Positions 46,592 through 64,000 of a DNA stretch of 64,000 bases are shown one piece after another (the first letter of the stretch is position 1; each line of letters begins with the position of its first letter). The stretch covers positions 76,902 to 140,901 of the forward strand of contig CAWHTD010000012.1 of NCBI GenBank assembly GCA_963832135.1, read 5' to 3'. The notes beneath the pieces were generated by a model that was not told the origin of the DNA, did not search any database, and saw only the letters and a list, made by a program, of their open reading frames with translations. This DNA is from Vicinamibacteria bacterium. Its GTDB lineage: Bacteria > Acidobacteriota > Vicinamibacteria > Vicinamibacterales > JAENWD01. The translations under genes and the position numbers were made by a program.

Positions 46592-47980
46592 GCGACGCCG
46601 CAATCGAGCGCAAAGGAACGCTGACCCTGGATCAGCTCCGCGAGCGGGTGTCTCGCGGCGACGTCGAGACCGTGATTGTGGGCTTCACGGATCACTACGG
46701 CCGCCTGCTTGGAAAGCGGTACGCGGCCGACTTCTTCCTCGAGGAGGCCGCCGCGCACGGCACGCACGGGTGCAATTACCTGCTGACGACCGACATGGAG
46801 ATGGAGCCCGTTCCCGGGTACCGCTTCGCCAGCTGGGAGCAGGGATATGGCGATTTTCGTCTCGTGCCGGACCTGGCCACCTTGATCGTTGCGAGCTGGC
46901 TGGAAAAAACGGCCCTGGTGCTGTGCGACGTGGTCGGCAACCAGGAACCCGGAGCACGTGCGGGTTGCGCCGCGCTCTGTGCTGCGGCATCAGGTTGAGG
47001 CCGCGACCGCGCTTGGCTTCACGACCTTTGCCTCATCGGAGCTGGAATACTACGTGTTTCACGACAGCTATCGGAAGGCTGCGGAGCTCGAGTACCGCGG
47101 GCTTCAGCCGGCCGGCTGGTATCTGGAGGACTATCACATTCTCCAGGGGACGCGGACAGAGACGTTCACGGCCGCAGTCCGGCGCCACTTGAAGGAGTCG
47201 GGCGTTCCGGTCGAGAGCTCGAAAGGCGAATGGGGTCTCGGGCAGCACGAACTGAACATTCGATATGCCGAGGCGCTGCAGATGGCGGACCGGCACGTCG
47301 TGTTCAAGCAATGCCTGAAGGAGATGGCCGATCGGGCGGGGCTCTCCGTCACGTTCATGGCGAAGTTCGCGCAGGATCGCGCCGGCTCGAGCTGCCACAT
47401 TCATCTCAGCCTGTGGCGGGACGGGAGGAATGCGTTCGCCGGCGATTCGGAGCTCGGTCCGGTGAAGTGTTCAGATTGCTTCCGCTGGTTTCTCGGCGGC
47501 TGGATCGCGCACGCGCCGGACGTGATGGTGCTCTACGCACCGACGATCAATTCCTACAAGCGATACGTGGACGCGTCGTGGGCGCCGACGCGGCTCGCCT
47601 GGAGCTACGACAATCGCACGGCCGGCTTCCGCGTCGTGGGAGAAGGGCCGAGCCTCCGGATCGAGTGCCGGATTCCCGGGGCGGACTGCAATCCCTATCT
47701 CGCCTTCGCCGCGTCGATCGCATCTGGCCTTGAAGGGGTCCGCAACCGCGTCGAGCCGCCAGAGTGCTTCACCGGCGATATCTATGCCGCGCGGCATCTG
47801 CCGCGCGTGCCGCATACCTTGAGGGAAGCCACCGACGCCTTTGCGGCGAGCGGATTCGCGAAGCGCGTCTTCGGCGAAGAGGTCGTCGAGCACTACACCC
47901 ATTTCTTCAGGACCGAAGAGGCCGCTTACAGCGTGGCGGTCACCGATTGGGAACGCCGGCGATACTTCGAACGGATTTGA
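46588..47980 (+). CDS. Glutamine synthetase family protein (gamma-glutamyl-amine synthetase, PuuA-like), split by a frameshift near 46951
   Basis: The N-terminal beta-grasp part (VETVIVGFTDHYGRLLGKRY...) is in the frame of ORF 46042..46998. The catalytic part (SELEYYVF, GEWGLGQHE, SCHIHLSLW, NPYLAFAASIASGLEG) is in ORF 46889..47980. The GTG at 46588 overlaps the permease stop (GTGA). Confidence 0.8.
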
Positions 47981-47982
47981 TC

Positions 47983-48762
47983 ATGCCAAGACGGCTCGAG
48001 GACAAAGTCGCCCTCATCACGGGTGCAGGCAGCGGCATCGGAAGAGAATCGGCGGTCCTGTTTTCCGCGGAAGGCGCGGCAGTCGTGGTCGTGGACCGCG
48101 ACGACAAAGGCGGCCATGAGACGGCCGAGGCGGTCAAGGCCGCAGGCGGCCGAGCCGTGTTCGTCCACGCCGATGTGTCTCGCAACGACGACTGCGCACG
48201 AATGGTCGGCGCGGCGGAAGGGGAGTTCGGCCACTTGCACGTGCTGTTCAACAACGCCGGCATCATGGACAGCCGCGATGACGACGCCGTGTCGACCGAC
48301 GAGAGCGTGTGGGATCTCACGATGAACGTCAATGCGAAAGGGGTCTTCCTCGGGTGCAAGCATGGTATTCCGGCATTGCGGCGCGCAGGAGGCGGCAGCA
48401 TCATCAACACCGCGTCGTTCGTCGCCGTTCTCGGCGCGGCGACGCCACAGATCGCCTACACGGCGAGCAAGGGCGCGGTGCTGGCGCTGACCCGGGAACT
48501 GGCGGTCGTGCACGCCCGCGAAAAGATCCGGGTGAACGCGCTGTGCCCTGGGCCGCTGCGTACGGAGATGCTGATGAAGTTTCTCGACACGGAGCAGAAG
48601 AAGCAGCGGCGTCTGGTCCACATCCCTATCGGCCGCTTTGGTGCTGCACGCGAGATCGCGCAGGCCGCGCTGTTCCTGGCGTCGGATGAATCGTCCTTCG
48701 TAACGGGAACGGATTTTCTCGTCGATGGCGGCATTACCGCCGCCTACGTCACGCCTGAGTAG
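47983..48762 (+). CDS. Short-chain dehydrogenase/reductase (classical SDR)
   Basis: It has TGAGSGIGRE, NNAG and YTASKGAV (YxxxK). The ATG lies 2 nt after the GS stop. Confidence 0.9.
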   Translation: MPRRLEDKVALITGAGSGIGRESAVLFSAEGAAVVVVDRDDKGGHETAEAVKAAGGRAVFVHADVSRNDDCARMVGAAEGEFGHLHVLFNNAGIMDSRDDDAVSTDESVWDLTMNVNAKGVFLGCKHGIPALRRAGGGSIINTASFVAVLGAATPQIAYTASKGAVLALTRELAVVHAREKIRVNALCPGPLRTEMLMKFLDTEQKKQRRLVHIPIGRFGAAREIAQAALFLASDESSFVTGTDFLVDGGITAAYVTPE

Positions 48763-48770
48763 GCAAGCAG

Positions 48771-50168
48771 ATGCCAGGAGCGATTCAGCAGACGATCAGT
48801 CCCATTGACGGGTCGATCTACGCCGAGTACGAGCTGGCGTCGGATCAGGCGATCGAAGCGGCGCTCGAGCGTGCGGCCGTCGCACAACGCCATTGGAGGC
48901 GGGTGCCCGTGGCCGAACGGGCCACCATCTGCCGTCGCACCGTGGCGCTGATGGTCGAACGCGCCGACCAGCTCGCCACCGAGCTGACCTGGCAGATCGG
49001 CCGGCCTATCGCGCAAACGCCATTCGAGATCCGTCGCGGGTTTCAGGAGCGCGCGAACTACATGATCGACATCGCGCCCGCCATGCTGGCCGACGTCGGT
49101 CTCGAGCCGCGCGACGGGTTTCAGCGCTTCATCCGCCGCGAACCACTCGGCGTCGTGCTGGTGCTGGCGCCGTGGAACTATCCGTATCTCGCCTCAGTGA
49201 ACGCGGTCATACCGGCACTCATGGCGGGCAACAGCGTAATCCTGAAAATCTCGGAGCAGACGCCGCTCGTCGCCGACAGGTATGCGGAGGCCTTCGCTGA
49301 GGCGGGCCTCCCGAGCGACGTGTTCCAGTATCTGCACGTGAGCCACGACGACGTTGCGCGCATGATTGGCGATCGGCGCATCGCCTTCGTGTCGTTCACC
49401 GGTTCGGTCGCGGGTGGTCACGCCGTGCAGCAGGCGGCCAGCACGCGTTTCATCTCGGCGAACCTCGAGCTTGGCGGCAAGGATCCTGGCTACGTGCGTC
49501 CGGACGCGCCGCTCGAGTCGACCATCGAAAACCTGGTGGATGGCGCGTATTTCAACGCCGGCCAGTCGTGCTGCGCGGTCGAGCGCATCTACGTGCATCA
49601 GGATGTCTACCGCGACTTCGTCGATGGCTTCGTCGAGTTGACGCGACAGTACCGGCTCGGTAATCCCCTGATGCCGGACACGACCCTGGGACCGATGGTT
49701 CGAAGAACCGCCGCCACCTTCGTCAGAGATCAGGTCAAGGAAGCGGAGCGGCAGGGCGCAAGAAGGCTCATTGATCCGCGTGAGTTTTCGGCCGATGTGG
49801 AGGGCACTCCCTATCTCGCGCCACAGGTGCTCGTCGATGTCGATCACCGGATGCGAGTGATGACGGAGGAAACCTTCGGTCCCGTCGTCGGTCTTATGCC
49901 CGTGAAAGACGATGACGAGGCCATCGTCCTGATGAACGACAGCCGGTACGGGCTCACCGCCTCGATCTGGACGAGCGATGTGGACGCGGCCATCCGGATC
50001 GGTGACCGCGTCGAGACGGGTACGTGGTTCCTGAACCGGTGTGATTATCTCGATCCGGCGCTGGCGTGGACCGGCGTCAAGGATTCCGGGCGTGGATGTT
50101 CCCTCTCGCATCTGGGATTCGATGCGCTCACTCGACCGAAGTCGTTCCACCTGCGCCTGAATCCGTAA
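48771..50168 (+). CDS. NAD(P)-dependent aldehyde dehydrogenase
   Basis: It has ELGGKDP and the catalytic-Cys region FNAGQSCCAVERIYV; EETFGPV is also present. Confidence 0.9.
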   Translation: MPGAIQQTISPIDGSIYAEYELASDQAIEAALERAAVAQRHWRRVPVAERATICRRTVALMVERADQLATELTWQIGRPIAQTPFEIRRGFQERANYMIDIAPAMLADVGLEPRDGFQRFIRREPLGVVLVLAPWNYPYLASVNAVIPALMAGNSVILKISEQTPLVADRYAEAFAEAGLPSDVFQYLHVSHDDVARMIGDRRIAFVSFTGSVAGGHAVQQAASTRFISANLELGGKDPGYVRPDAPLESTIENLVDGAYFNAGQSCCAVERIYVHQDVYRDFVDGFVELTRQYRLGNPLMPDTTLGPMVRRTAATFVRDQVKEAERQGARRLIDPREFSADVEGTPYLAPQVLVDVDHRMRVMTEETFGPVVGLMPVKDDDEAIVLMNDSRYGLTASIWTSDVDAAIRIGDRVETGTWFLNRCDYLDPALAWTGVKDSGRGCSLSHLGFDALTRPKSFHLRLNP

Positions 50169-50255: not shown

Positions 50256-51185
50256 CTACGGTCTCAGCGCGCTGGGATCGCCGGTCGGAGGCGGCGCCAG
50301 ATCGATCGCTGCCGGCGGGCCGAGCAACTCCAGAAAGATCGGCTTCAACGCGTCCGCCCAAATCTGGTACCCCGTGAGCGTCGGATGCAGCTTGTCACGC
50401 TCGTTCAACACGCCCTCGAGCGCCCTGCCGTCGTTGTCGGCGAGACGGTCATTGATGTTGAGGAACCGCACCTTCGTCCCATCGGCGATTCCGGCGAGCC
50501 GGGCGTTGATCTGCGTGATGGAGGGCATGACCGCCATGTTGTCGTTGCGCGGAAAGATGGCTGTCAGGATGATCGTGGCGCTCGGGGCTTTCTCGCGGCA
50601 GAGATCGGCGATCGCTTTCACCCCGCGCGCGATCTCGGCAACCCTGGCCTCATCCCCAGGCTCGGCGCCGACGTTGTTCGTCCCGGCAAGCAATACGATC
50701 ACCTTGGGATGGATCCCATCGAGCTCGCCGTTCTGGAGCCGCCACAAGATGTGCTGCGTGCCATCTCCGCCCCAGCCGAAGTTCGCCGCATTCCACCCAT
50801 AGAAGTTCTTCTTCCAGTTGGCGAGGAAATCGGGGTAATCGGTCGCGCCCCACCGGCGGACGATCGAATCGCCTTCGAAATAGATATCGATTCTGCCCTG
50901 CTTTGCCTTCTGAAGTAACTGCGCGTGCGCCGCCGCCGAATTCTGATCGGTCCGTGGGACCGCTTGGTCGGCGGGCAGGGTGTCGAGCAGCGCTGCGGCC
51001 GGCGTGGGGGAGGCTGGCGCAGGCGTCGCTTGCGGCGTCGGCGTTGCCTGCGCGGATGCAATAGGCCAGACGAACGCCGACAGGATCAGCGCGACGTGAG
51101 CGAGCGCGGTGCCCGCGCTCAGGACGCGGTTGGCGATCAGCCGGGCCTCGCGTTCGCGCTTCGGCGTCCGTCGCTGATCTCTCAC
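50256..51185 (-). CDS. Secreted SGNH/GDSL-family hydrolase (PAF-acetylhydrolase/sialate-O-acetylesterase-like)
   Basis: It has a signal peptide. Block I is FEGDSIVRRWG, block III LLAGTNNVG and block V DKLHPTLTGYQIWA. The GTG start overlaps the stop of the upstream large gene (GTGA at 51182-51185). Confidence 0.8.
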   Translation of the reverse strand: MRDQRRTPKREREARLIANRVLSAGTALAHVALILSAFVWPIASAQATPTPQATPAPASPTPAAALLDTLPADQAVPRTDQNSAAAHAQLLQKAKQGRIDIYFEGDSIVRRWGATDYPDFLANWKKNFYGWNAANFGWGGDGTQHILWRLQNGELDGIHPKVIVLLAGTNNVGAEPGDEARVAEIARGVKAIADLCREKAPSATIILTAIFPRNDNMAVMPSITQINARLAGIADGTKVRFLNINDRLADNDGRALEGVLNERDKLHPTLTGYQIWADALKPIFLELLGPPAAIDLAPPPTGDPSALRP

Positions 51186-52879
51186 ACCGCCGACTCGTAG
51201 ATCTGGTCGAAGACGAGGCCGCTCGAGCCTTCACCGCGGCCCGTGGGCGACGATCGCCCAATCCACAGGAACGTCCGTCCGTCGGTCCAGCGTGCGCGAT
51301 GGAAGGTGCGCGTCACGGTTCGGCCGGCGCGCGGGACTTCTTCTTCCGCGATGAAGTACGGCGCCTGGACGTTGAGGATCTCGCCGAGCGGCTGCGGCGG
51401 CTGGCCCGGCATCCGCGCGCGCTGCAGGCGGATGCTGCGCGTGGAGCCCGGGACATGCGCCGGCACGAAGGGCCGCCAGTTGGAAGGAACGGTCGTGCCC
51501 AGGGTGTAGCGGGCGCTGGCGTCCGTCGCCGGCGTCGTCGGCGGCATGTGGTCAATCTGCGGATCGAACGGGTCGCCCAGTTTCGACGGCAGTCGCTGCT
51601 CGACGGCCCAGACCATGTTGGCCATCTCGTCGCGCAGGAACTCCACACGCTCGATAGGAGGCGATTCGACGGTGGCGGTCAGCGCCGGCGTCAGAAACAG
51701 GCCCATACGCTCGCCTGCATCCCCCTGGAGGCGAAACATCGACCAGCGCTGCCAGTCGGCGTCCCCGCCGCGGCCGGCGGCTCGGACGAGCGTCTGATCG
51801 CCGAAGACGTCGGTGACCAGGAGGCCTTCGATCCGCGTGAAGCTGCCGACGCGGAGCTCCAGCGGCAGCAGGCACCAGTCGTTCGAGTACTGCAGCACGA
51901 ACTCGGCGAGCAGCAGCTTCGCGAGATCGTTGGGCTCGACGTCGAGGCGCCCGAAGTCGGTCTTCCCGTCCTCCATTTCCCAATAGCGCTCGTTCGGCAT
52001 GCCGGTGAACTGAATCGCCGTCGGCAGAAACGACAACCCGGTCGCCGGCGGTGCCGGGGGTGGTGCGGTGAGGCTCGCAGGCACCTCGAAGGCGTGCCAG
52101 TCGAGATCGCCGCCCCGATGATTCGCCGCGCTGAGTTGGACGGTGCCCGAGTCTGTTCCGCAGGCAAAGCGATAGTCGAGCCTCTCAGGCTGCCACGCCG
52201 ACGGATCATCGCCGGACTGAGAGTAGGTTCGCTCGTACCAGGCCACGAGCGCGCGGCCGGCGTCGACCAGATCGTTCTCTTCTGCCGCGCCCAGTCCCTG
52301 AAAGCCCTGAATCTTCGTCGCATGCGAGCCGTTACGCACCACCCTGATGAGCGCTGCCGCGTCGAACAGGAAGCGTCTGCCGGCGTGGAAGAGCGCGCGA
52401 GCTTCGTCCGTGTCGGCGCCAACGACGCCCGTGTCGTAGTCGAGCGCGAAGAGCGCGACGTAGTCGTCGAGCCGGGAGGCATGCCCCTTCGCCCGGAGCA
52501 GGCGCTCGAACACCCGCGCCGCCTGCATATGCAGCATCAGATCGAACGGCACTGCCTCCCGCTCGATCCGTACCTCCAGCGGCATCGTCGGGTCGTAAGG
52601 ACGGCGATCGTTGCCGACGGTGTAGCTGTCGAGGACCATCGTCTGATACGCGATGCGCGCATCGATGGGCGACCCGGCATCCTCGCCCTCGAACTCGCCG
52701 TACTGCCATTGCCGCGTGAGGAACCAGAGCGGATCGCGGACCTCGGCGCGCAGGCTGCGTTGGAAGTCTTCCGTTCTCTGGCGGCCCTCGAGACGGTTCC
52801 AGCCGCGGATGAGCGGCATGGCATTCCGAGAGCCGAGCGTGAATTGGTAGACGGCGGCGGCGCGATCGTTTGGAGGCAT
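51182..52879 (-). CDS. Large hypothetical protein D (about 565 aa) of the giant-protein operon
   Basis: The long ORF has good coding character. The ATG at 52879 lies 7 nt after the upstream stop. I recognised no signal peptide or catalytic motif. A distinctive segment is RDPLWFLTRQWQYGEFEGEDAGSP. Confidence 0.6.
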   Translation of the reverse strand: MPPNDRAAAVYQFTLGSRNAMPLIRGWNRLEGRQRTEDFQRSLRAEVRDPLWFLTRQWQYGEFEGEDAGSPIDARIAYQTMVLDSYTVGNDRRPYDPTMPLEVRIEREAVPFDLMLHMQAARVFERLLRAKGHASRLDDYVALFALDYDTGVVGADTDEARALFHAGRRFLFDAAALIRVVRNGSHATKIQGFQGLGAAEENDLVDAGRALVAWYERTYSQSGDDPSAWQPERLDYRFACGTDSGTVQLSAANHRGGDLDWHAFEVPASLTAPPPAPPATGLSFLPTAIQFTGMPNERYWEMEDGKTDFGRLDVEPNDLAKLLLAEFVLQYSNDWCLLPLELRVGSFTRIEGLLVTDVFGDQTLVRAAGRGGDADWQRWSMFRLQGDAGERMGLFLTPALTATVESPPIERVEFLRDEMANMVWAVEQRLPSKLGDPFDPQIDHMPPTTPATDASARYTLGTTVPSNWRPFVPAHVPGSTRSIRLQRARMPGQPPQPLGEILNVQAPYFIAEEEVPRAGRTVTRTFHRARWTDGRTFLWIGRSSPTGRGEGSSGLVFDQIYESAV

Positions 52880-52886
52880 GGTCGGG

Positions 52887-55800
52887 TCAGGGTTGAGGCT
52901 GTGCGAGCGCGGTGGCCACAACTGATGCGAAGTCGATATTAGCCAGCCGCCCTTCGGTGAACTCGCTGAGAATGGCCGGCAGAAACTGGAAGTACGCGCC
53001 GCTCGGCGCCGGGTCGTTGACGTCGCGGCCGATGAGCGACTCGAGCTCGACGGCGCGCATCTTCGCCAGGTCGAGCGCTTCGTGCACCGAGCCGACCAGA
53101 TCGTCGAACGTCCAGTGCCCGCGCAGCTCCGGCGTGACGGCTACGAGCACCGCCTGCGGCGCGACGGCGTTGGGTCGATTGAAGTTGAACGCCACTCCGG
53201 TTGTCTCGCGATCTTCGGGCACCGTCTCCGTCCAGTCGTCGATCAACAACCCTGCCTGGAGCGGACGCGCCGCGGCTTCGGCATTCACGACGACTATCGA
53301 CAGCCACTCTCCAGTGGGAAGCGCGTCACCGAACGTGCCGCCGATCCAGGGCGTCCCGGCACGATGGGGGAACTGAACGACGGCGGGGTCGGCGATTGGA
53401 TGCCCGCTCCAGCGAGTTGACGCGAACGCCCAGGCGAGGTCGGCAACGGACGGCCGTACACGACAGGCGGAGAGCAGCCATTCGTCGGTGGCCGTGCCGT
53501 CGGCAACGGGTGCCGCAAGCGACTGCGCGAGCTCGCTCGACTGATCCGGCGGGAGCGTGAAAAGAGGCAGCACCGGGAACGCCGGTCCGAAGATCGCCTT
53601 CGCCGCATCCAGACGGCGTTGCCGCACGACGTCATTCCGGCGTGCCTGTTCGAACGTGCGCGCGGGCTCCTCGGCCGGGAGGGCATCGCTAAAGGCCGGC
53701 GCGAGGAGTTCGGCGGCCTGTCGGAGGCGATCTTCGGCGATCTTCGACACGACGATCCCCTGGCGTAGGAGCCGATCGACGAGCGCGCTCGACACCGTCA
53801 CCCCGTCAGCGGGCAGCGCTTCGGGCACGCCATAGGGAACCACTGCGAACAGCGCGGATCGCAGGCCGTTCAGTGTTCCCGTCCACGCCGGATTCGCGAT
53901 CGTGCCGGGATCGGTCTCGAGCGACGCTATTAGCGGTGCCAGCGCGGTCAGCGCCGACTCGAGGACACCGAGGGCGTGCGTCAGTCCGTCCTTTGCGGAT
54001 TCGAGATGGTCGGTCAGGTCCTTGAACTCTTCCAGTCTTGGATGCCCGCTCGCGGACCCCGTCGGATCGCCGGGAGCCGACTGCGATTCGTCGGCGGAGC
54101 GACGCCAGTCTGCGGCATGGGCGGCACGAGATCGGATGACGAGACGCCGCAAGCGCATCAGCAGCGGCTGCAACGTGGCCAGACTCGTCCGCCCGGCGGA
54201 GGCTTTCGAGAAATCGGCCTCTACGACGACGTCGTCCACCACGGCGTGCGCGAAGCGGAACTGACGAATCAGGAAGCGCTCGAGCTCGCTCGAGCGATCG
54301 CCGAGCCGATCGCCGCTCATCAGGATCAGGTCGAGCGGTTCGAGCCCAAGATCCGCGAGCGATTCGACGGCAGGCGCAGAGGTTCCAGCGCGAACCGTCC
54401 ACTGGATCTGCGCCGGCGGCGGCAGCAGACCGGACAGCCAGTGATTGAGGGGTGCGCTGGCGCGGGCGCGCGGCGAGAGCGTGCTGGTCCAGCCGGCGAC
54501 GGCATCCGCATCCAGTGCGAGCGCGAGACGGAACGTCAGCACGCGCCCGCTCCGTGGCGTCCGGACGATGTCCGGCTCCGGCGGCGGCGCGGGAGAGGTC
54601 AGCGCCTGCTGCGCCGCCTGCGTTCTCGTGACGTTGCCCTGGACCACCTGGTGCACGCCTTCCGCGAGCAGGACATCGGAGACCGCGTCGAGTGCGTCGC
54701 GCAGGCGATCGATTTCGAAGGCGATGGCCGCCGCTTCCGGCGATCCTGCGGCGGGCAGGCCGCCGATGCCATACGCGTAGGCCTGGTTCGCGGTCGCCTC
54801 GACCAATGCGAGGCCGTCGACCACGTTGCGCGCCTCGATGACGTCCGCCGTGGTGCCCGGCGGCAGGTCGGTGAGTCGGCCCGAGAGGAGCGGAAAGCGA
54901 TCGCGGAGCGTGTAGATGTGTTGATCGAGCTCGAGGCCCACGTGACCCTCGTGCAGTCCGCGCTCGAACTGGTAGCCGAGCAGCGCGGCGATTGCCTGGC
55001 CGGAGCGCACGCCGTCGGCGAGCGCCATCGCGTCGCGCACGCGTCCCGACGACAGGTTCACCGCAAAGGTCTGCGGCTGATCCGAACCGGCGTGCGACAG
55101 ATATCCGTTCCGCAGGACGGCCGCAGTCGCCGCCTGCATCAGCGAGGGCGCGTGCACATAGCCGCCGTTCGTGGCGTCGTCGAACACCGCGGGGCCGGCC
55201 ACGTCGCGGAGCGATTCGGGGATGGCATCCGGAGGCAACGGGGTTCGGTCGGCGGTCGCCGGTCGGAGGTTTTCAATCCATCCGAACGCACCAAGGTGCA
55301 GTCCAGGAGCCGGATGCCGCTCCTTCAGCAACGCCAGTCGCTGGGAGTACAGCGCCGTAATCCAGGCGTCGAGCCGGAACGAGCAGAGATCGACGTGTTC
55401 TGTCAGCAGCCGTTCGAGCCGCGCCGTTGGCAGGCCGGCCAGCGCGGCGATTGCGTCGTTGACCTCGGCGAGGCGCTCGGCGGCTGAGGGACGCGTCGGC
55501 CGCGGCAGCCGCGACGCGTCAAGCGTCCAGTCGACGAGCGCCTGGGGCGACCGGGCGAGCCCAAGCTTCGCGGCGTCGATTTCGAGATAGTCGCGGCGCT
55601 GGACGTGCTGCGCGTCCCCGATGTTGGCGATCAGCGGGTCGCGGTCGACGACATCGAAATGCTGCGCGCCGCGGTCGCCAGCGATCTCCAGCGCGACGCT
55701 CTCGAGTGCGGCGAGCAGCGCGTTCCGCAGCATGAAGTAGAGGAGCGCGGTGGGCGCGGGAATCTGCGTGCCGGAGGCGTTCAGGAAGCGCTGGCCGGTC

Positions 55801-57788
55801 AAATCGGCGCGCGACGCCTGCGTCAGCCACCAGAGATAGTTGTGCTGACCGTCATAGGGTGCGATCGCGCTGGTTTCGGACAGCGCGACCAGCGGATCGC
55901 GATCGATCAGGGGCAGCCGCCAATCACTCGTCTCACGCTGGTACACGAGATAGATCAGCAGCGGATCGGTGCTCGTGCCGCCAGGCGGAAAGTGGATGCC
56001 GGTGAGGCTGTCGCCACGCACGCCTTCCAGCTGCGAGAACCACTGCTGGAGTCCGGGCGCCGTCGCGCCGCGGAAGGTCAGCCACTGCACCACCGAGATA
56101 TCCGAAATGGCGCGCCGCGATACGAACTCGCGCGAGCTGGCCAGCTGCCCGATGATGCGCAGAAGACGCTGAAACGGATCCCCGCTCGGCTGCGCGGCGT
56201 GCGGCGCGAACCGCGCGAGCGTTTGCCACTGAAACCGATGCTGGGCAATCTGGTCGTAGAGCTTCTGTGTGATGTCGGGCGGCGCACTCGGCGTCGTGCT
56301 CGGCAGAGGCTTCCATGCGCCCCAGGCGCTTGTGACGACGATGCCATATGGCTGGCGGCCGATGCGCAAGGCGGGGTAATGGCCGCGACCGGTCACCCAT
56401 GTCACGAAGAAACTATGCAGGTCGGCAGCAGTCTGCGGGCTGACCAGTCCCTTCAGGAAGCCCTCGACGTAGTAGTCGAGCGTGCCTGGCGTGGCCGCAC
56501 GGTTCATCACCAGGGCTTCGGCGACATCGGTGCGTGTGGCGTTCGGCAGGCGTCGCACGAACTCGCGGCCGAGCCCGAGCAGATCGCCCAGGCGTGTTCC
56601 ATCCGGCATGCCCAGCATGCCGTCCGCCGGCGTGACATCCGGCGGTGAGTCCTCGATGGCGAAGAGCTGCTGCGCATCGGCTGACGGCGGCTGCCAGCCG
56701 CTCGGCGTGTCGGCGTTATTGGTGGGCGTCCCGAGTGGCACGAGCCCGAATCCATCGCCGAAGCGATGCTTCGAGAAAAGCGACTGTAGCGCCGCCGAAG
56801 CATCTTCCGGTGGCGTCGCACTCCGGACGCCAATCGCCAGCACCCGATCGAAGCCGAAGGTGTCGTGTGGATGTGTCAATGGAATCCGCAGCGCCATCCC
56901 GACCGCGACCGCCGCGTCAAAATCGACCATCCACTTGAGCGCGTCGGGGACGATCAGCCGTCCCGTGGCCTCGTCTCTCGACATCCACGAGTCGGGCTGA
57001 TCGCCTTCCGACGCCAGCATGAGATTGTCTGGAATCGGTGCGCCAATGGCACGGTTCACTTCCCGCATCGCGCGCGTAGTCGGATCGGCGGTGTAGGTGA
57101 TCACGACGAACCGATCGGGCAGCAGATCGGCTCGCGCGACTGGCGGCTCGTCGGGAGCGATTGGATCCGCGAAGTGCAGATCGCCCGGTGCCGCATCGGG
57201 GTTCTGCGGCGCGGTTGCCCGGACGATGAAGCTGGCGCGATACGCTCCTGTCTGGGTGGCGAGCGCCGTCCAGGCGCCTTCGTACGCCCGCCGCTTCGCG
57301 TCGTTGCCCGCGGCGTGCCGCGCGGCAGCGCGCGCCTTCCAGTAGGCGACGCCAAGCACGCGCTCCGCTTCTGACACCGGGCTGAGCGGTGCGGCGATGC
57401 TGATGTCGTCCGGGAAGAAACGCACGCGCAAGTCGGCGCCGGTACTGGTACGAACGAACTTCGTTTCAATCCGGATTGGCAGCAGCACGAAGGGCAGATC
57501 GTCGCTGCACGCCTCGACGATTTGCTCGGGCGTCTGCGCCAGCCAGTCGACGAGGGTGCCGAATGCGTCGTCGCGCAGTCGCGCATAGGCGGCGCGTGCA
57601 CTGGCCCCAGCCTGTTCGGCCTCGTGGCGTTCGCGGCGGAGCCGCCTGGCGTCCTGTTGCTGGCCGGCGCGATCGGCACGCGCAATCGCGGCGTCGAGGC
57701 CGCGGATATGCTCGTCGGCGGCAATCGCCGATCGAAGCGCGGCATCGCGGTTGGCGCGTGCCCGTGAGATGTCCTGCGGCTGTGGCAT
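52887..57788 (-). CDS. Giant hypothetical protein C (1,633 aa)
   Basis: The 4.9-kb ORF is uninterrupted. It has a charged coiled-coil-like N-terminus (RARANRDAALRSAIAADEHIRGLDAAIARADRAGQQQDARRLRRERHEAEQAG) followed by LPFVLLPIRIETKF. I noticed no Walker A, HExxH or signal peptide. Confidence 0.65.
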   Translation of the reverse strand: MPQPQDISRARANRDAALRSAIAADEHIRGLDAAIARADRAGQQQDARRLRRERHEAEQAGASARAAYARLRDDAFGTLVDWLAQTPEQIVEACSDDLPFVLLPIRIETKFVRTSTGADLRVRFFPDDISIAAPLSPVSEAERVLGVAYWKARAAARHAAGNDAKRRAYEGAWTALATQTGAYRASFIVRATAPQNPDAAPGDLHFADPIAPDEPPVARADLLPDRFVVITYTADPTTRAMREVNRAIGAPIPDNLMLASEGDQPDSWMSRDEATGRLIVPDALKWMVDFDAAVAVGMALRIPLTHPHDTFGFDRVLAIGVRSATPPEDASAALQSLFSKHRFGDGFGLVPLGTPTNNADTPSGWQPPSADAQQLFAIEDSPPDVTPADGMLGMPDGTRLGDLLGLGREFVRRLPNATRTDVAEALVMNRAATPGTLDYYVEGFLKGLVSPQTAADLHSFFVTWVTGRGHYPALRIGRQPYGIVVTSAWGAWKPLPSTTPSAPPDITQKLYDQIAQHRFQWQTLARFAPHAAQPSGDPFQRLLRIIGQLASSREFVSRRAISDISVVQWLTFRGATAPGLQQWFSQLEGVRGDSLTGIHFPPGGTSTDPLLIYLVYQRETSDWRLPLIDRDPLVALSETSAIAPYDGQHNYLWWLTQASRADLTGQRFLNASGTQIPAPTALLYFMLRNALLAALESVALEIAGDRGAQHFDVVDRDPLIANIGDAQHVQRRDYLEIDAAKLGLARSPQALVDWTLDASRLPRPTRPSAAERLAEVNDAIAALAGLPTARLERLLTEHVDLCSFRLDAWITALYSQRLALLKERHPAPGLHLGAFGWIENLRPATADRTPLPPDAIPESLRDVAGPAVFDDATNGGYVHAPSLMQAATAAVLRNGYLSHAGSDQPQTFAVNLSSGRVRDAMALADGVRSGQAIAALLGYQFERGLHEGHVGLELDQHIYTLRDRFPLLSGRLTDLPPGTTADVIEARNVVDGLALVEATANQAYAYGIGGLPAAGSPEAAAIAFEIDRLRDALDAVSDVLLAEGVHQVVQGNVTRTQAAQQALTSPAPPPEPDIVRTPRSGRVLTFRLALALDADAVAGWTSTLSPRARASAPLNHWLSGLLPPPAQIQWTVRAGTSAPAVESLADLGLEPLDLILMSGDRLGDRSSELERFLIRQFRFAHAVVDDVVVEADFSKASAGRTSLATLQPLLMRLRRLVIRSRAAHAADWRRSADESQSAPGDPTGSASGHPRLEEFKDLTDHLESAKDGLTHALGVLESALTALAPLIASLETDPGTIANPAWTGTLNGLRSALFAVVPYGVPEALPADGVTVSSALVDRLLRQGIVVSKIAEDRLRQAAELLAPAFSDALPAEEPARTFEQARRNDVVRQRRLDAAKAIFGPAFPVLPLFTLPPDQSSELAQSLAAPVADGTATDEWLLSACRVRPSVADLAWAFASTRWSGHPIADPAVVQFPHRAGTPWIGGTFGDALPTGEWLSIVVVNAEAAARPLQAGLLIDDWTETVPEDRETTGVAFNFNRPNAVAPQAVLVAVTPELRGHWTFDDLVGSVHEALDLAKMRAVELESLIGRDVNDPAPSGAYFQFLPAILSEFTEGRLANIDFASVVATALAQPQP

Positions 57789-57800
57789 GTCGCGTCCCGC

Positions 57801-60800
57801 TTACGCCGGCGGCGTCAGGTTCTTGAGCATGTGCCGGCCGTGTACCGCCACGAGCACGGGATCCTGATAGAGGACGTATGCCATGTCCGCGGCATGCGTT
57901 CCCCAGGACACGCCGCCCGTGTCCGTGCCGGCCGGCTGAGAGACGAATGCCTTCGACACATCGATGGCATGGCCGCCCGTGAGATCGACGTTCTCCCAGG
58001 CGAGGTTGTCCCACGTCTGTGCCGAGGGCTCGACAGGGGCCGCCACGTCGAGCCCGAAGCGAGGCTCGCCGACGGCTTCCTGAATCACGAAAAACCAGCC
58101 GGTGTTATCGCCGACCGTGGCGCGCGCTTCCGCGGTTTCGTCCAGTCGAGTGTCGCCGCGGACCTCTTCGAAGGTCAGGTCGAAGCCAAGAAAGTGAACG
58201 TCGGGCGCAATACGCGCCTTGTAGAGGGGGAACCGGAGCCGCGGATCCTGAGGCGTGGTCGCAAAGAGCTCGCCCGTCTCGTCGCTCAGCACCAACCGGT
58301 TCGCGCGAAGGCCAGTGCCCCACATCGCTTTCTGCGCGTAGATGAACGTGTTGGGGTAGCGCTTCAGCAGATCGCCGCGGATGACCAGCACCACCTGTTT
58401 CTTGTCGCCCTGCGGGTTGCGGTGATTGTGCGCGCCGAGCGCCGTGTCGGTGGCCCACTCGTGCAATGGGGGAACGTCCTTGAGGTCCTCTGCCAGTTCC
58501 TTCGGACCGCGGCCCTCGAGATCGACGAAGCTCGACACGTCCCAGAACTGCCGGAAAGAGCTGCCACGCTGATCGGTCGGAAACTCGCGCCACAACAGCT
58601 CGCGTGCCAGCTCGTGATTGAGGCCGGCGAGATACGCCTCGATAAACGGCTGATTGGCTCGCAGCAGCGACAGGGTGTTGTTGGGAATCAGCTTCAGATT
58701 GGGCAGAAAGTACTCGCTCGAGATCGCCTCGAGCGGCGCGTACATCGCGTCCTTGATGTCGGGATAGCTCATGACTTCCTGAAGCGTCTCGGACGGAGCA
58801 TCGGGTGTCGCGTTGGCATAGTGAGTGTTTACGAACGTCAGCACGTCGACGCCGCCTACACGGAAGAGCGGCGCGAACCGTGCGGCCACCGCGCGGTGCG
58901 GCTCCAGCGCCGTCAAGGCCTTCTCGTGCACGAACGCCGTGTCGAGTGCCGGCTTCGGCAGGAGCGGCTCGACGCGGACCGACAGCGCCTCGCCGAACGC
59001 GATCAGCGCGCGCCGCATGTCGTCGGCCGGCGTGTTGTCGCCGTTGACGACTGGCCTGCCAGGGCGGGGCACGGTCGACGGTCGAAACGTCGTGTCGGTT
59101 GCCGCACCCTCGAAGCGAAATGCCGGTCGCGCAGGCGTGCTCACGATCGCCGTTGCCGTCAGCTCGCTGTCGGAGAGCAGGCGAACCACGAGGCCAGCGT
59201 CGGACTCGCGACGCCGTGAGGGGCGTGCTCGCGTCGGGCGATCCGTCGCGGCGACAGTCTCGCTGATCCGCTCGACCGTCGCGCCGCCCGGCGCGGGCAC
59301 AGGTGGCGCCGCCGACAACTGACCCGCGCCCGCCCCGCCGACGACCGAGGCCAGCGCGTTCGCGCGGATCTCCGGCTCGAGCACGTGGCGGGCAAGCCGT
59401 CCCTGAGGCCGAAGCTGCTTCCGAAGCGCTGGTGAAATGGCAGCACGCGGCAGACGGCTCGCCTTCACGACCAACGCGAGCGTCGTCGGGCTCGCGAGCA
59501 CTTTGCTGAAGACCGGCGAGGCCAAAGCAAGCGCGCGCTCGCGGGGAAGCGGCGCGAACGACTTGAGAAAAAGCGCCGAGGCGGCCTTGGTCGCGAGTTG
59601 CGCGCGCCGAATCTGCCGGTTGACGCTGATGACGTCGCCGATCTGTTCCCAGGCGATGCGCATGTACTTTTCCTGATGGGCGCGCACGACGCGCGCGCCC
59701 AGACCGGCGACGGCGCGGTAGCGCGGGTCCAGATTGAGCGCGTCAACCCAGTGACCGGCACTGGCGCTGTGATCGACGCGCTCGACACGGGCATGCCAGC
59801 AGCCGTAGATCGGCGGCACGACCAGTGGATCGCCTGCGCCGCCCTCACGCGCGTCAGCCGCCGCGTTCAGGACGGGCTCGACTTGCGGCGTGAACGTGTT
59901 GCCCGCGGCCAGGCCCCGCGGCACCGTGGTCGGCGCCAGCAGCGCGCCTTCGAGGGCCACCGTGTCATCCGGTGGATTCGTGACCGTGTTTACGCCGAAC
60001 CCCGGGTGGGCGATCTCCATGTCGCGGATGCCCACGCGCGGGTCCATGTCGCGCGGCACGAGGGCGCGCACCAGCGATTCGAAGTCGCCCTCGATACCAG
60101 TCCGGAATCGCCACTCGAAGTAAATCGGGAACTCGTCGGCCGGCCCCGCCCACGCCTGTGCCGTCCCATCGTCCGTATCCGCCACCGGCTCGCCGAGTCC
60201 GGCCTTCCGTCCGGTCTCGAACGTCGGCACGAGAAACGCCGCGTAGCTGGTGTTCGGCTCGAGCTTCCGCGGACAGACGATGCGGCTGTACGACACGTCC
60301 GGGTTGGCGGCCACCGCGGCGGCGAGCTGATTGAGATCGGGCGCCGCGGGCGTGCCGCCGAGCGGAACGTTGACGTGCACGTGCGCCCAGGCCCATTCCT
60401 GACCGGCCGCGGGGAAGATGTCGGCGCGGCGCGCCTGGCTGTTCAGCACGAAGGACGGCAAAGGGCGATCGGGTACCTGTTTGCGCGAGCACTCGTCCTC
60501 GCTCAGGACGACGAGCATCAGCCAAGGCAGCAGACGGTGCGTGGCGCTGTCGGGCGATACCGGCGAATAGCGCCAGGGAAAATCCTCGTCATAGAAGTCG
60601 ACCGCTGCGAGATAGTTGGGCTCGAAGTCACTGACCCCTGCCCGCGGCTCGGTGCGGATGATCTGTTGCGACTGAAGGCCCGTGATGTCGCCGGGACCGA
60701 CGAGCCGCACGGTGACCGGTGGCAGATCTTTCCGCTCCTCATCCGATGCGACGGCAAGGGTGACCGTCGCAGTCGCCCGGGTGGCGCCGGCGCCGGCGGC

Positions 60801-60866
60801 GGTGCCGAGGTGATTGGAAATCCCTCGGCGCAGCCAGGGAAGGAAGGTGTACGTCGCGATCGCCAT
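57801..60866 (-). CDS. Giant hypothetical protein B (1,021 aa)
   Basis: The ORF is uninterrupted. GGAGGTG lies 10 nt upstream of its ATG, inside the 3' end of the preceding gene. The N-terminus is MAIATYTFLPWLRRGISN. I recognised no family. Confidence 0.65.
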   Translation of the reverse strand: MAIATYTFLPWLRRGISNHLGTAAGAGATRATATVTLAVASDEERKDLPPVTVRLVGPGDITGLQSQQIIRTEPRAGVSDFEPNYLAAVDFYDEDFPWRYSPVSPDSATHRLLPWLMLVVLSEDECSRKQVPDRPLPSFVLNSQARRADIFPAAGQEWAWAHVHVNVPLGGTPAAPDLNQLAAAVAANPDVSYSRIVCPRKLEPNTSYAAFLVPTFETGRKAGLGEPVADTDDGTAQAWAGPADEFPIYFEWRFRTGIEGDFESLVRALVPRDMDPRVGIRDMEIAHPGFGVNTVTNPPDDTVALEGALLAPTTVPRGLAAGNTFTPQVEPVLNAAADAREGGAGDPLVVPPIYGCWHARVERVDHSASAGHWVDALNLDPRYRAVAGLGARVVRAHQEKYMRIAWEQIGDVISVNRQIRRAQLATKAASALFLKSFAPLPRERALALASPVFSKVLASPTTLALVVKASRLPRAAISPALRKQLRPQGRLARHVLEPEIRANALASVVGGAGAGQLSAAPPVPAPGGATVERISETVAATDRPTRARPSRRRESDAGLVVRLLSDSELTATAIVSTPARPAFRFEGAATDTTFRPSTVPRPGRPVVNGDNTPADDMRRALIAFGEALSVRVEPLLPKPALDTAFVHEKALTALEPHRAVAARFAPLFRVGGVDVLTFVNTHYANATPDAPSETLQEVMSYPDIKDAMYAPLEAISSEYFLPNLKLIPNNTLSLLRANQPFIEAYLAGLNHELARELLWREFPTDQRGSSFRQFWDVSSFVDLEGRGPKELAEDLKDVPPLHEWATDTALGAHNHRNPQGDKKQVVLVIRGDLLKRYPNTFIYAQKAMWGTGLRANRLVLSDETGELFATTPQDPRLRFPLYKARIAPDVHFLGFDLTFEEVRGDTRLDETAEARATVGDNTGWFFVIQEAVGEPRFGLDVAAPVEPSAQTWDNLAWENVDLTGGHAIDVSKAFVSQPAGTDTGGVSWGTHAADMAYVLYQDPVLVAVHGRHMLKNLTPPA

Positions 60867-60873
60867 ACTCTGT

Positions 60874-63800
60874 CTACACCTCCGCGAGGGTGAGCGCGGC
60901 TGTTGACATCACCTGCACCGTGCCAGACAGCTCGGGATGCTCCGCAAGCGCGCGCCTCAGGGCCACGTCGGCCTCGAACGCGGTTTCGAAGATCGAGTCG
61001 ACCGTGTGCAGCGACAGGTCGTCGGTCGACACGACAGCGTACCGGTCGCGAACGATGGCCACGTGTTCGCTCAGGGCTGATGACGACGTGCTGGCGTGCG
61101 ACAGCGGCGATCGCGATATCGCGGCGCCGGCAATCGAGAAGCTCGCCAGGCCCGACGAAATTGCGTACTTCGGCCGCACGGGATGTCGTTCGGGCAGATA
61201 AATCACTTCGTAGGCGACCTCGCGCTGCCGCATGAAGTCGGTGCGCGGCATCGGGTCGCCGCCGATGGCCACGCCGGAGTCGAATTCGGCGAACGACGGC
61301 CGAGAGAGCTTCTCGGCGTCGCTCATCTCGAAGAACTGCGCCGGCGCGAACTCTTCACGCGTAGGGGCGGTCGGAGCCATCGCTCCGCCGACCATGCAAT
61401 CCACGATGGTGAAGACAGTGCCGCGCGCGGGCCTGGCCGATCCGACGAGCTGAATCGGGATGCCGAGCGGCGCGAGCTTCTGCGACACGTCGAGGAAGCC
61501 GTACGGGTGCAGCACCAGCGTCTCGGTTGGATTGGGCAGCGCGCGCAGCGTGACCGACTGGCTGGAGCCGACGGGCAGCCGCGGGATCCAGTTGCCGGAA
61601 TTGGCAAGGGCCCCGGCGAGCTCGGCGAGCACGTCCAGCGGCGCCAGCACCGACGGCAGCCCCGGCCGAATGGTCACGTTGAACCGCACGCGGATCGTGA
61701 CGGTGAACACGAAGCCAATCTCGAACGAGCCCGAGCCTTTCGCGTGAAGCGGCAGTGGCCCCTCGAGCGTCAGCTCGAGTCGAATCGAGAACAGGACGCG
61801 GCCGCCGGTGCGGACGGCGATCATGCCGGCGATCTCGGCAATGAAGTGGAACGGGCTGCGCGTGATCAGGACGTCGAGGCTGAGGAAGCCCTTCACGCTG
61901 AAGATGCTGAAGCTGTAAGCCAGCTCCAGCCGCCCGCCGAACTGAATCGTGTTCGCGGTGACGGCGAAGTAGGCCTCGGCGCGGATGTCGGGATTGCCGT
62001 CGCTGAGGACGATGCTGAGCCTCGCCAGTTGCCGCAGGTTCATCGGCGGCGGCGTGTACGCCGGATTGAAACCGCCGACGGTCAGCAGGAGATTGGCGTT
62101 CGCCTTCCAGTAGAAGCGCACGGCCATATCACCCGTGAGCGTGAAGTTGAGCACGCGCGAGTCGTAGAGCGTCGCGTCGAACTCGAGCTGTCCCGACTCG
62201 AAGTCGACGGTCCCGAAGAAGTTCACCTGCAGGCGCAGAATCGCCGCGTCTTCGGCGGGGAGCGCCGCGCGCAGGACGCCGATGAACGCGAATCCGAGGC
62301 GGGGGAGCTGGAGAAAAACGCCGGCCTTCAGCCGAATCAACGGCGGCGTCGCCCACGTGATATCGGCCATGGGCCCGACGAGGAACGTGCCAGGTTGTAC
62401 CGGGAACACGCGCTGGAGATCGCCAATGAGGCGCGGGGCGTTGGCGACGACGTCCTTCGGAAACAGCACGCTGTCGAACGATCCATCGGTGAGCCCGGCC
62501 AGGAGCGTCTCGCGCTTGTAGGTGCGGTTCAGCGCCAGGAGACCGCCGACGCCTCGGAGCGTGAATCCAAACGGCAGCTGGATAGGCGGCGTGTCGGAGG
62601 TGATCAGAATCAGGATCGAGAAGCCGTCGCCGCCCTCGGGCAGCTTCGTGGTGACGATGCCGAGCGCGGCGACGTTGAGGGTGCCCTTGAACACCAGTTC
62701 GAGGCCGCCGGCATACTCGCCCTTCTCGCGATCGAAGATCAGGAAGCCGCCGCCGGTGAAACCCGCGGCATCGATCGCGAGGCCGGCGCCGTTCGGTGGC
62801 TTGAACCCGAGATCGAGGTCGAACGGCCCGGCGTTCCCGGGCTGGAACGCCACGTCCATGCCGACGCCGACGCCCTCCAGCAGGAATTGGAGCGGGCCGA
62901 GCTTGCCAGAAACGCCTGCACCGAGTTCGAGGCGGATCTTCGGCGCGCCGTCGGACGCCGCCGCCAGGCGCACCATCACGTCGTCGACCCGCACCGGCCC
63001 GAGCTGCAGGTGCGGATGCAGCGTGACCTCGAACGCGGCGCTGCCTTTGAAGCGAAGTCCCGTCCCCTTCTTCCATTCGATACCGAGCGGCACGTCGACG
63101 GCCACGGGCGACTCGCCGATGATCGTGCTGAGGAACGTGTCGCCCTCGCGCGCCGCAATCACGAGCTTGAGCCCGAGAAGATCGGCAGTCAGCGCAAGCG
63201 ACGTGTCCGTACCAGCCACGTCTGCCGCCAACCCGGCGGCGATCGATGCGAGCTCGATGCGTGAGGCTTCCGGATCTCCGATGAGCGTGACAGGCGACGC
63301 GGGCGCGTATGTGAAGCCGACACCGATGCCGGCGGCCGGTGGCGGCGTGCCCGGTGCGAGCGGATACCGGATCTCGACCAGATCCGGAGGGCGGAGCGTG
63401 ATGCCAAAGAGCTGGCCGACGTTGCTCCCCGCCCGCACGTTCATCGTCACCGAGGGACCGAGCTGAAACTCGAGCGGCATCTCGGAGGGAAGCCGCGGTT
63501 CCAGGATCAGCCCCGGCATCGCGCTGCCCTGTGCGGGCAATCGCTGGAGTGCGATCGCGCCCTCGACCGTTCCGCCGGGCGTGTTCGCGTAGAAGAATGG
63601 GAGGACGACGGCACGTTCGGGCGGTGGCGGCACCACGTTCGTCAGCCCGAGGTATCCGGCGAGCGCGTTTTCATCACCCCGCCGGTAGGAAACAGGCAGG
63701 CCGAGCGTGAGCCCCAGCGTGGCGACATGTTCGAGCAGGAGCCCATCATCGAAGTCCATGCGGCCCCAGCCGTAGACGCGCTCTGGCAGTCCCTGCGGCT

Positions 63801-64000
63801 CGCTCACGATCTTGGGGAATTCTTCCCAGCGGAAGCGCGTCCGCACGTGCGAGGGCCGCGTCGGGGTCGCCGGGACGCTCTCGACCGTGATCACTTTCAG
63901 CATCGAGAGCGCGTTGTAGGCAGCGGGCTGTGCGGCCGCCAGGTAGTCCGTCAACAGCAGCTCGAAGAGCCGCTCGCCGACCTCCTGCGCGTAGGCCGCG
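60874..64000 (-). CDS. Giant hypothetical protein A (more than 1,041 aa; N-terminus lies beyond the window edge)
   Basis: The frame stays open from the listed TTG at 63954 to nt 64000 (AAYAQEVGERLFELLL|TDYLAAA...). It has a long Gly/hydrophobic beta-strand-like region (GFTGGGFLIFDREKGEYAGGLELVFKG...GFTLRGVGGLLALNRT). Confidence 0.65.
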   Translation of the reverse strand, partial: AAYAQEVGERLFELLLTDYLAAAQPAAYNALSMLKVITVESVPATPTRPSHVRTRFRWEEFPKIVSEPQGLPERVYGWGRMDFDDGLLLEHVATLGLTLGLPVSYRRGDENALAGYLGLTNVVPPPPERAVVLPFFYANTPGGTVEGAIALQRLPAQGSAMPGLILEPRLPSEMPLEFQLGPSVTMNVRAGSNVGQLFGITLRPPDLVEIRYPLAPGTPPPAAGIGVGFTYAPASPVTLIGDPEASRIELASIAAGLAADVAGTDTSLALTADLLGLKLVIAAREGDTFLSTIIGESPVAVDVPLGIEWKKGTGLRFKGSAAFEVTLHPHLQLGPVRVDDVMVRLAAASDGAPKIRLELGAGVSGKLGPLQFLLEGVGVGMDVAFQPGNAGPFDLDLGFKPPNGAGLAIDAAGFTGGGFLIFDREKGEYAGGLELVFKGTLNVAALGIVTTKLPEGGDGFSILILITSDTPPIQLPFGFTLRGVGGLLALNRTYKRETLLAGLTDGSFDSVLFPKDVVANAPRLIGDLQRVFPVQPGTFLVGPMADITWATPPLIRLKAGVFLQLPRLGFAFIGVLRAALPAEDAAILRLQVNFFGTVDFESGQLEFDATLYDSRVLNFTLTGDMAVRFYWKANANLLLTVGGFNPAYTPPPMNLRQLARLSIVLSDGNPDIRAEAYFAVTANTIQFGGRLELAYSFSIFSVKGFLSLDVLITRSPFHFIAEIAGMIAVRTGGRVLFSIRLELTLEGPLPLHAKGSGSFEIGFVFTVTIRVRFNVTIRPGLPSVLAPLDVLAELAGALANSGNWIPRLPVGSSQSVTLRALPNPTETLVLHPYGFLDVSQKLAPLGIPIQLVGSARPARGTVFTIVDCMVGGAMAPTAPTREEFAPAQFFEMSDAEKLSRPSFAEFDSGVAIGGDPMPRTDFMRQREVAYEVIYLPERHPVRPKYAISSGLASFSIAGAAISRSPLSHASTSSSALSEHVAIVRDRYAVVSTDDLSLHTVDSIFETAFEADVALRRALAEHPELSGTVQVMSTAALTLAEV

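Follow-up and report, generated by a model that had tools for sequence, protein, structure and literature searches.

Introduction

The Tc (ABC) toxins of Photorhabdus, Yersinia and Serratia (TcA/TcB/TcC) are built from several giant, soluble subunits that carry no signal peptide and are encoded in one operon; a large β-sheet element is tied to an enzyme, the payload varies between loci with TcC carrying the toxin, and receptor-binding-type domains decorate a subunit. Extracellular contractile injection systems (eCIS), tailocins and type VI secretion systems (T6SS) pair a conserved structural block with variable effector genes in the absence of Sec signals, and they are mobile and of patchy occurrence, with soil Actinomycetota and Bacteroidota as abundant carriers. 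Inside the cell, bacterial conflict systems draw on an effector repertoire that includes trypsin, caspase and phosphoesterase domains (PMC8195603). Here we analyse four giant genes, termed A, B, C and D, that lie at the edge of a 64,000-nt stretch of DNA (the window) from a Vicinamibacteria bacterium (GenBank assembly GCA_963832135.1, contig CAWHTD010000012.1, positions 76,902 to 140,901 of the forward strand) and that a sequence-only reading had singled out as an operon that may encode a multi-subunit assembly. We find that the unit comprises five components rather than four, the fifth being a swappable enzyme, and we estimate at about 40% the probability that A-D form a Tc-toxin-like, though unrelated, extracellular complex that carries or delivers this exchangeable enzyme.

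Results and Discussion

A syntenic, mobile module that spans phyla and domains

A profile of B, run against one genome for each GTDB species, returned 74 non-redundant loci, and the order A-B-C-D was held in all 56 of those in which the four genes were detected, detection in the remaining loci being limited by contig ends or broken reading frames. As the sequence-only reading had anticipated, the four families do co-occur in other genomes. All four are intact, full-length open reading frames (ORFs) in 44 loci; A and B overlap through an ATGA in 26 loci, and the median A/B, B/C and C/D gaps are -1, 16 and 4 nt, respectively. The module is spread over about ten bacterial phyla and the haloarchaea, its carriers including Beta- and Alphaproteobacteria, Acidobacteriota, Gemmatimonadota, Verrucomicrobiota, Nitrospirota, Ignavibacteria and Limnocylindrales, the Actinomycetota (Streptomyces, Actinoplanes, Actinomadura, Kribbella, Frankiaceae and Acidimicrobiia) and the Bacteroidota (Spirosoma, Larkinella, Chitinophaga, Saprospiraceae and Lewinellaceae). 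The nearest relatives of the module in the window reside in uncultured betaproteobacteria (67% identity for locus L001 and 78% for L076). Four haloarchaea carry the module on megaplasmids, plasmids of Streptomyces, Gemmatirosa and Rhizobium, among others, harbour it as well, and in S. europaeiscabiei it is flanked by tyrosine recombinases. The flanking genes vary between loci, and clustering of the ORFs around the module revealed no conserved gene downstream of D. The preserved order, the plasmid and recombinase settings and the differing flanks together argue that the module is a self-contained, horizontally mobile unit. The size of the homologue families (more than 3,618 homologues of B and 4,909 clusters of D) and the order kept across phyla likewise indicate that A-D are genuine genes and not chance ORFs of a GC-rich genome.

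The frames of A-D are broken or truncated in seven loci (L073, from a metagenome-assembled genome of an Ilumatobacteraceae bacterium, and L040, L043, L045, L056, L066 and L069), mostly from 'MFD' assemblies, and may reflect either assembly frameshifts or real pseudogenes.

A variable enzyme gene precedes A

The same clustering showed that A is immediately preceded, on its own strand, by one or more genes that belong to a handful of unrelated families (Table 1), most of them recognizable enzymes. Catalytic motifs are intact in all members checked: GDSG in 20/20 trypsin-like proteases, the Asp/His/Ser triad in 7/7 S8 subtilases, HExxH in 15/15 zincins and GDQIY in 5/5 PhoD-like phosphatases. No upstream enzyme begins with a signal peptide, and the partner subtilases have propeptide-like N-termini. 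The 379-aa protein of the Saprospiraceae loci matches neither Pfam nor the PDB; from its invariant His/Cys pair (SHGN...GCKIG), and from this pair only, it may be a caspase-like peptidase. Because its closest relatives, L001 and L076, both encode an M64-like zincin, the genome of the window most likely encodes an M64-like zinc protease just past the window edge. The sequence-only reading had considered that phage-tail-like or secretion genes near the operon would be informative; none was found near the module, and the variable enzyme gene lies upstream instead.

Two observations concern individual partner genes. First, the trypsin-like partners (L005:4542-6560, and those of L016, L022, L025 and others) match the NAL1_N domain of the plant protease NARROW LEAF 1 (E=4.8e-5), which suggests that NAL1-type proteases have bacterial relatives within the cassette. 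Second, the module of Streptomyces longwoodensis (L080, plasmid NZ_CP107814.1, 110869-140107) is enlarged: the 1,519-aa protein with a PG_binding_1 domain is followed by a 1,328-aa DUF6603 protein, a 1,709-aa B with FG-GAP/VCBS repeats, and then C and D; a gene for an RHS-repeat toxin adjoins it on the opposite strand, and plasmid primase genes are near.

Signs of a link between the enzyme and A

The enzymes have no domain in common with A-D. On the other hand, the trypsin-like and S8 enzymes share a helical C-terminal domain of ~120 aa (hhalign probability 98.8%, E=5e-17) with the motif NRRV..VWxRNGGPxLV, which looks like a common docking module grafted on unrelated catalytic domains. Within A, conservation is lowest over the initial ~330 residues. 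At matched identity of the DUF6603 core, this N-terminal region was more alike between loci that have the same enzyme class (0.32 versus 0.22 in the 50-60% bin, and 0.40 versus 0.25 in the 60-70% bin), in a comparison that ignores kinship; this is suggestive of covariation between the A N-terminus and the class of enzyme. Finally, P0337 (1,512 aa, from a JGI metagenome) is a full DUF6603 protein to which a Kelch/glyoxal-oxidase-like propeller is fused at the C-terminus, whereas L017, L020, L021 and related loci encode this enzyme class in an upstream gene of its own.

B, C and D acquired domains typical of extracellular proteins

Several homologues of B, C and D carry additional domains. D is fused to two LTD (lamin-tail) domains in Salinigranum, to a LamG/ConA lectin domain in P0412, to collagen triple-helix repeats in P0468 and to a ComEA-like HHH_3 domain in P0426 and P0444; the haloarchaeal C homologue of Salinigranum (2,322 aa) has an annotated BGTF surface domain, and B of S. 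longwoodensis contains FG-GAP/VCBS repeats. Extracellular-type modules were gained independently by B, C and D in different lineages. The median Cys content of A-D is only 0.09-0.33% in all taxa, compared to 0.6-2.5% in the cytoplasmic proteins of the window. Moreover, the partner enzyme classes (subtilase, M64, PhoD and copper radical oxidase) usually work outside the cell. The fusions, the low Cys content and the enzyme classes all favour an extracellular role.

A is predicted to form a long amphipathic β-meander

A model of full-length A (AlphaFold2, 119-sequence alignment; mean pLDDT 81.1, pTM 0.55) consists of a helical bundle (residues 1-140), a small α/β region, ~37 strands (residues 234-882) and a mixed C-terminal part. 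The strands are mostly 10-17 residues long and interrupted by a single helical insert (residues 601-636), and 25 of the 37 are strongly amphipathic, opposing an aliphatic/aromatic face to a polar/charged one. The DUF6603 core of A is accordingly modelled as a long antiparallel amphipathic β-meander, in agreement with the Gly/hydrophobic β-rich region that had been noticed in the sequence alone. Foldseek searches of the PDB returned as top matches giant β-barrels or belts (SlpA, LptD, the PapC/FimD ushers, SprA and ApoB100; E=7e-6 to 1e-3), which share with A this very long antiparallel, amphipathic meander in the model, the best being the Deinococcus S-layer base protein SlpA (E=6.6e-6, TM-score 0.16). 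As TM-scores do not exceed 0.18, identities are 7-11% and root-mean-square deviations about 20-30 Å, the likeness is local and, for the predicted model, one of fold class and not of family membership. Unlike these proteins, A has a helical bundle and no signal peptide at the N-terminus (as seen in the full-length protein P0312), and occurs in Streptomyces and haloarchaea. Monoderm Actinomycetota and archaea have no outer membrane. Because it lacks a signal peptide and is present in monoderms and archaea, A is not a conventional outer-membrane protein. Among viral structures (BFVD), Foldseek found nothing similar to A (TM-scores ≤0.12). A Foldseek search with a model of B was meaningless (best E 1.3).

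Four families that match no described system

The match of A to the Pfam family DUF6603 (PF20248) covers positions 2-501 of a profile of 502; it scores 416.5 bits (E=1.8e-124), where the gathering score requires 27 bits for membership, and PF20248 is carried by all A homologues. DUF6603 is a Pfam family without known function and the only named family matched among A-D, and no characterised family was assigned to any of the four. B, C and D had no match in Pfam, NCBIfam, PHROGs or PADLOC (a weak PHROG match of D, E=0.09, is not credible), and individual Pfam scans of 42 B, 28 C and 40 D diverse members revealed no recurrent family; the match of one C member to T6SS_TssG (E=0.018) was regarded as noise. 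None of A-D had a match at E≤0.1 among the 5,027 models of PADLOC-DB v2, and the matches to PDB sequences, sought by single sequence and by profile, were all noise from coiled coils or designed helices. A, B, C and D constitute four mutually unrelated families, not paralogues, and A has no internal repeats. Every one of the more than 3,618 homologues of B is annotated as hypothetical. At 50% identity, the D family profile detects 4,909 representative clusters, of which 1,837 have E≤1e-30. The searchable literature, part of the literature not being searchable, holds nothing relevant on a DUF6603/PF20248 cassette. Because four libraries of hidden Markov models, the PDB sequences, two structure libraries and the searchable literature lack a description of it, no known kind of system can be assigned and we consider the cassette to be categorically new, its mechanism being one that we infer.

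How does the module compare with the closest described machines? With the Tc toxins it shares the giant, soluble, signal-less subunits encoded together, the large β-sheet element associated with an enzyme, the payload that varies between loci and the receptor-binding-type domains on a subunit, and the C-terminal cargo-like fusion of P0337 resembles TcC carrying its toxin. By contrast, it has no sequence or fold match to them: RHS/YD, VRP1, neuraminidase-like, TcA_TcB_BD and SpvB domains were not found in A-D (Pfam/NCBIfam) or in the diverse members of B, C and D that were scanned, and Tc structures are absent from the 50 Foldseek PDB matches listed for A. Furthermore, the payload is here encoded by a separate upstream gene, it consists of hydrolases or oxidases of secreted type rather than classic intracellular toxins, the conserved families number four and not three, and archaea are included. 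With eCIS, tailocins and T6SS the module has in common the conserved block with variable effector genes and no Sec signals, the mobile and patchy occurrence and the abundance in soil Actinomycetota and Bacteroidota, and its lineage-specific collagen and LamG binding fusions resemble tail fibres; unlike them, it has no sheath, tube, baseplate (gp25/gp6/gp27-like), spike or AAA+ ATPase, and no tail gene was called in the surroundings of L001 and L002. With each defining feature tested being absent, the module is a member of neither the Tc toxins nor the tailocin/eCIS group.

A phage origin was also considered and rejected. B has no relatives in 2.9 million viral contigs (IMG/VR), and the sole 'phage' record with the operon (L079, GenBank MT835531.1, 1-40042, 'Bacteriophage sp.', from human faecal samples) is flagged UNVERIFIED and has 75% GC. 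It holds B, C and D together with the end of A at its 3' end, and is most likely a misclassified bacterial (actinobacterial-like) contig, not a phage.

A particle that may carry an exchangeable enzyme outside the producer

On the basis of these features, we hypothesize that A-D are the four conserved subunits of a horizontally mobile five-component module whose fifth gene encodes the enzyme, and that the four giant, cysteine-poor, signal-less proteins would assemble into one large particle acting outside the producer, in order to carry, display or deliver the enzyme. The variable N-terminal region of A would be the part that holds the enzyme, and the amphipathic sheet of A could be a shell or an element that contacts membranes or lipids; B and C would make up the conserved body of the particle, and D its exposed, target-binding end. 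The particle might be released by lysis, which we assume by analogy only, or by another route. More tentative, and to our mind rather doubtful in this complete form, is the proposal that a four-subunit particle of ~4,400 residues, built around the giant single-chain sheet of A, loads one of many interchangeable enzymes and carries it out to a competitor, prey, a polymer or a surface without Sec/Tat, an ATPase or phage-tail ancestry.

Several points weigh against such a particle. The complex is deduced from the genes, and nothing in the module accounts for a way out of the cell: signal peptides, transmembrane helices, an ATPase and genes for lysis or secretion are all missing from it. The covariation of the A N-terminus with the enzyme is uncorrected for shared ancestry; in the genome of the window the upstream enzyme lies beyond the edge and is deduced from L001 and L076; and in L078 no annotated gene precedes A on the same strand, the neighbour being on the opposite strand. 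'Shell or barrel' is a statement about the fold class of the A model at TM-scores of at most 0.18, and the model of B is poor (pLDDT 59, pTM 0.41; 29-sequence alignment). Finally, intracellular conflict systems make use of effector sets (PMC8195603) to which the enzyme classes (possibly caspase-like, trypsin-like and phosphoesterase) bear a resemblance.

The best of the alternatives, which we consider unlikely, is an intracellular anti-phage or programmed cell death system: A-D would serve as a giant sensor or scaffold and, upon infection, switch on the neighbouring enzyme, whose role would be that of a suicide or degradative effector. The module does share with conflict systems (STAND/Avs, ternary and Death-like-domain systems) interchangeable protease and phosphoesterase effectors, here three or four protease classes plus a phosphoesterase, an adaptor-like C-terminal domain common to two unrelated protease classes, and horizontal spread (PMC8195603). 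Its patchy distribution across phyla and domains, shaped by horizontal transfer with plasmids and adjoining recombinases or transposases, and its lack of signal peptides and transmembrane segments would fit as well. However, A-D match none of the PADLOC models and contain no nucleoside triphosphatase (NTPase) core, nuclease, known sensor domain or effector-associated or Death-like adaptor domain, and their neighbourhood in the window is one of ordinary metabolism and not a defence island. Moreover, the domains that were accreted (collagen, LamG, LTD, BGTF surface, FG-GAP/VCBS and PG_binding_1) are typical of extracellular proteins, the copper radical oxidase-like partner with its chaperone and the propeptide-like subtilases are better suited to secreted enzymes, and the strong Cys depletion of A-D also speaks against an intracellular role.

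Less probable again is a superstructure of the cell envelope or surface, akin to an S-layer or an outer-layer scaffold, that A-D would form and the enzyme would only mature or remodel by proteolysis, cross-linking or dephosphorylation. Such a role would agree with SlpA as the top Foldseek match of A, with the BGTF surface domain annotated in the archaeal C and with the tight translational coupling, which suits subunits made in fixed proportion; assembly proteases are known to be replaced by other protease classes. Conversely, the TM-score of A to SlpA is merely 0.16, A-D have neither a Sec/Tat signal nor a sortase, SLH or PGF-CTERM-type anchor, a single maturation step would hardly accommodate both oxidase and phosphatase partners, and a vertical inheritance would be expected from an envelope component, yet the module is sporadic and plasmid-borne. 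The weakest alternative, a cytoplasmic cage in which A-D would sequester a dangerous enzyme as encapsulins or self-compartmentalising proteases do, could invoke the adjoining enzyme gene, the docking-like C-terminal domain of two enzyme classes, the lack of export signals and the large predicted sheet of A as a wall, but is very improbable given that no HK97-fold, bacterial microcompartment (BMC) or vault-like match and no encapsulin or microcompartment shell protein was found (Pfam, PHROG and Foldseek), that the common C-terminal domain occurs in only two cargo classes, that cages are not typically built from four different giant subunits and that both the Cys depletion and the fusions to lectin, collagen, LTD and VCBS modules suggest a place outside the cell.

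The extracellular enzyme-carrying complex thus remains our preferred reading. The sequence-only reading had wavered between a toxin- or injection-like, an envelope and a conflict assembly: the swappable enzyme, the extracellular-type fusions and the β-sheet of A speak for the multi-subunit, toxin- or injection-like kind, while the choice among the three is still one of probabilities. A strictly syntenic cassette of four giant genes with a plug-in enzyme slot that crosses phyla into archaea is in any case the signature of an autonomous molecular machine, and the B, C and D families, with thousands of members each, are missing from Pfam, NCBIfam, PHROGs and PADLOC and bear no sequence similarity to solved structures. 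If the enzymes are delivered or displayed outside the cell, the module would open a new route by which proteins are exported or toxins delivered, and would be a programmable chassis with a naturally exchangeable payload; as a four-subunit export particle, it would be an unrecognised class of machine common to Bacteria and Archaea, with thousands of members in soil microbiomes; and if it were an immune system, it would be free of NTPases and embody a new sensing principle. The organisms that carry these families live in soil, freshwater and hypersaline habitats, with cultivable representatives in Streptomyces, Actinoplanes, Spirosoma, Larkinella, Chitinophaga and Microvirga.

The four genes and their surroundings in the window

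All four genes lie on the minus strand and are read inward from the window edge in the order A, B, C, D (Table 1). A fresh reading of the coordinates bears out what had been described from the sequence alone, namely four co-directional giant ORFs with spacers of 7 (A/B), 12 (B/C) and 7 nt (C/D) and a Shine-Dalgarno (SD)-like GGAGGTG before B. Full-length A is represented by P0312 (1,146 aa, encoded on a 785-kb contig), which is 100% identical across the visible part; since 1,041 residues are visible, ~105 codons of A lie beyond the window.

Table 1. Features of the window and gene families found directly upstream of A
Feature	Position	Strand	Remarks
Gene A, partial	60874..>64000	-	1,041 aa visible; frame open at the edge
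DUF6603 domain of A	61315..63012	-	aa 330-895 of the visible fragment; Pfam match
SD-like GGAGGTG	60877..60883	-	in the last codons of A, 10 nt 5' of the B ATG; read directly from the sequence
Gene B	57801..60866	-	1,021 aa
Gene C	52887..57788	-	1,633 aa
Gene D	51182..52879	-	565 aa; ATG at 52879
GDSL/SGNH lipase-acylhydrolase gene	50256..51185	-	Pfam Lipase_GDSL_2, E=5e-24; clear signal peptide
Permease to dehydrogenase run	44912..50168	+	genes for an amino-acid permease, a glutamine-synthetase-like protein, a short-chain dehydrogenase and an aldehyde dehydrogenase
2,836-aa ORF	3977..12487	+	GT2, glucoamylase-like and GH94 domains
Trypsin-like serine proteases	upstream of A		15 loci; NAL1_N-like N-terminus, often two paralogues
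M64-like zincins	upstream of A		13 loci, including all closest relatives of the window (L001, L076)
S8 subtilases	upstream of A		11 loci
379-aa Saprospiraceae protein	upstream of A		9 loci
Galactose/glyoxal-oxidase-like Kelch proteins	upstream of A		7 loci; preceded by a PpoB2 copper chaperone and DUF1326
PhoD-like phosphatases	upstream of A		6 loci, plus the Salinigranum locus
1,519-aa protein with PG_binding_1 domain	upstream of A		1 locus (S. longwoodensis plasmid)

Sequence scans and Pfam/NCBIfam searches upheld the absence of a lipobox, Walker A, HExxH and RHS/YD motifs from A-D, no catalytic motif could be recognised in them, and no N-terminal signal peptide was found in the module. Nor is there a convincing transmembrane helix in A-D, the sole hydrophobic peak being in C (aa 1272-1290). 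C is helical at about aa 1200-1400 and at its charged N-terminus, where ~80 residues form the Ala/Arg/Asp/Glu-rich segment that the sequence-only reading had pointed out; by alignment, this segment is not conserved among C homologues. The segment of D that it had called distinctive, RDPLWFLTRQWQYGEFEGEDAGSP, is present and turns out to be the best-conserved stretch of the D family in the alignment, and D further possesses a motif near either end, a conserved acidic/Trp-rich one in the N-terminal part and RGEGSSGLxFD in the C-terminal part. Alignments of B revealed the highly conserved motifs WAWAHVH and GLNHEFARELLWREYPTDQRGS and an extreme N-terminus that is near-invariant in all phyla, Y-S/T-F-L-P-W-L-R-R-G, which in the window reads YTFLPWLRRGI (residues 5-15). 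Such invariance is unusual for the start of a protein, and the motif could be an assembly or export signal.

The surroundings of A-D in the window are made up of ordinary metabolic genes. In the longest ORF of the GDSL gene the start codon is a GTG and overlaps the D stop codon, with no terminator-like site between the two genes, and the gene may be co-transcribed with D; it was not found downstream of D in any of 76 related loci and is a neighbour of D specific to the window. The 2,836-aa ORF has the architecture of a cyclic β-1,2-glucan synthase (NdvB/Cgs-like), and the run of genes that ends just before the GDSL gene looks like a catabolic cluster for amines or polyamines of the γ-glutamylation type.

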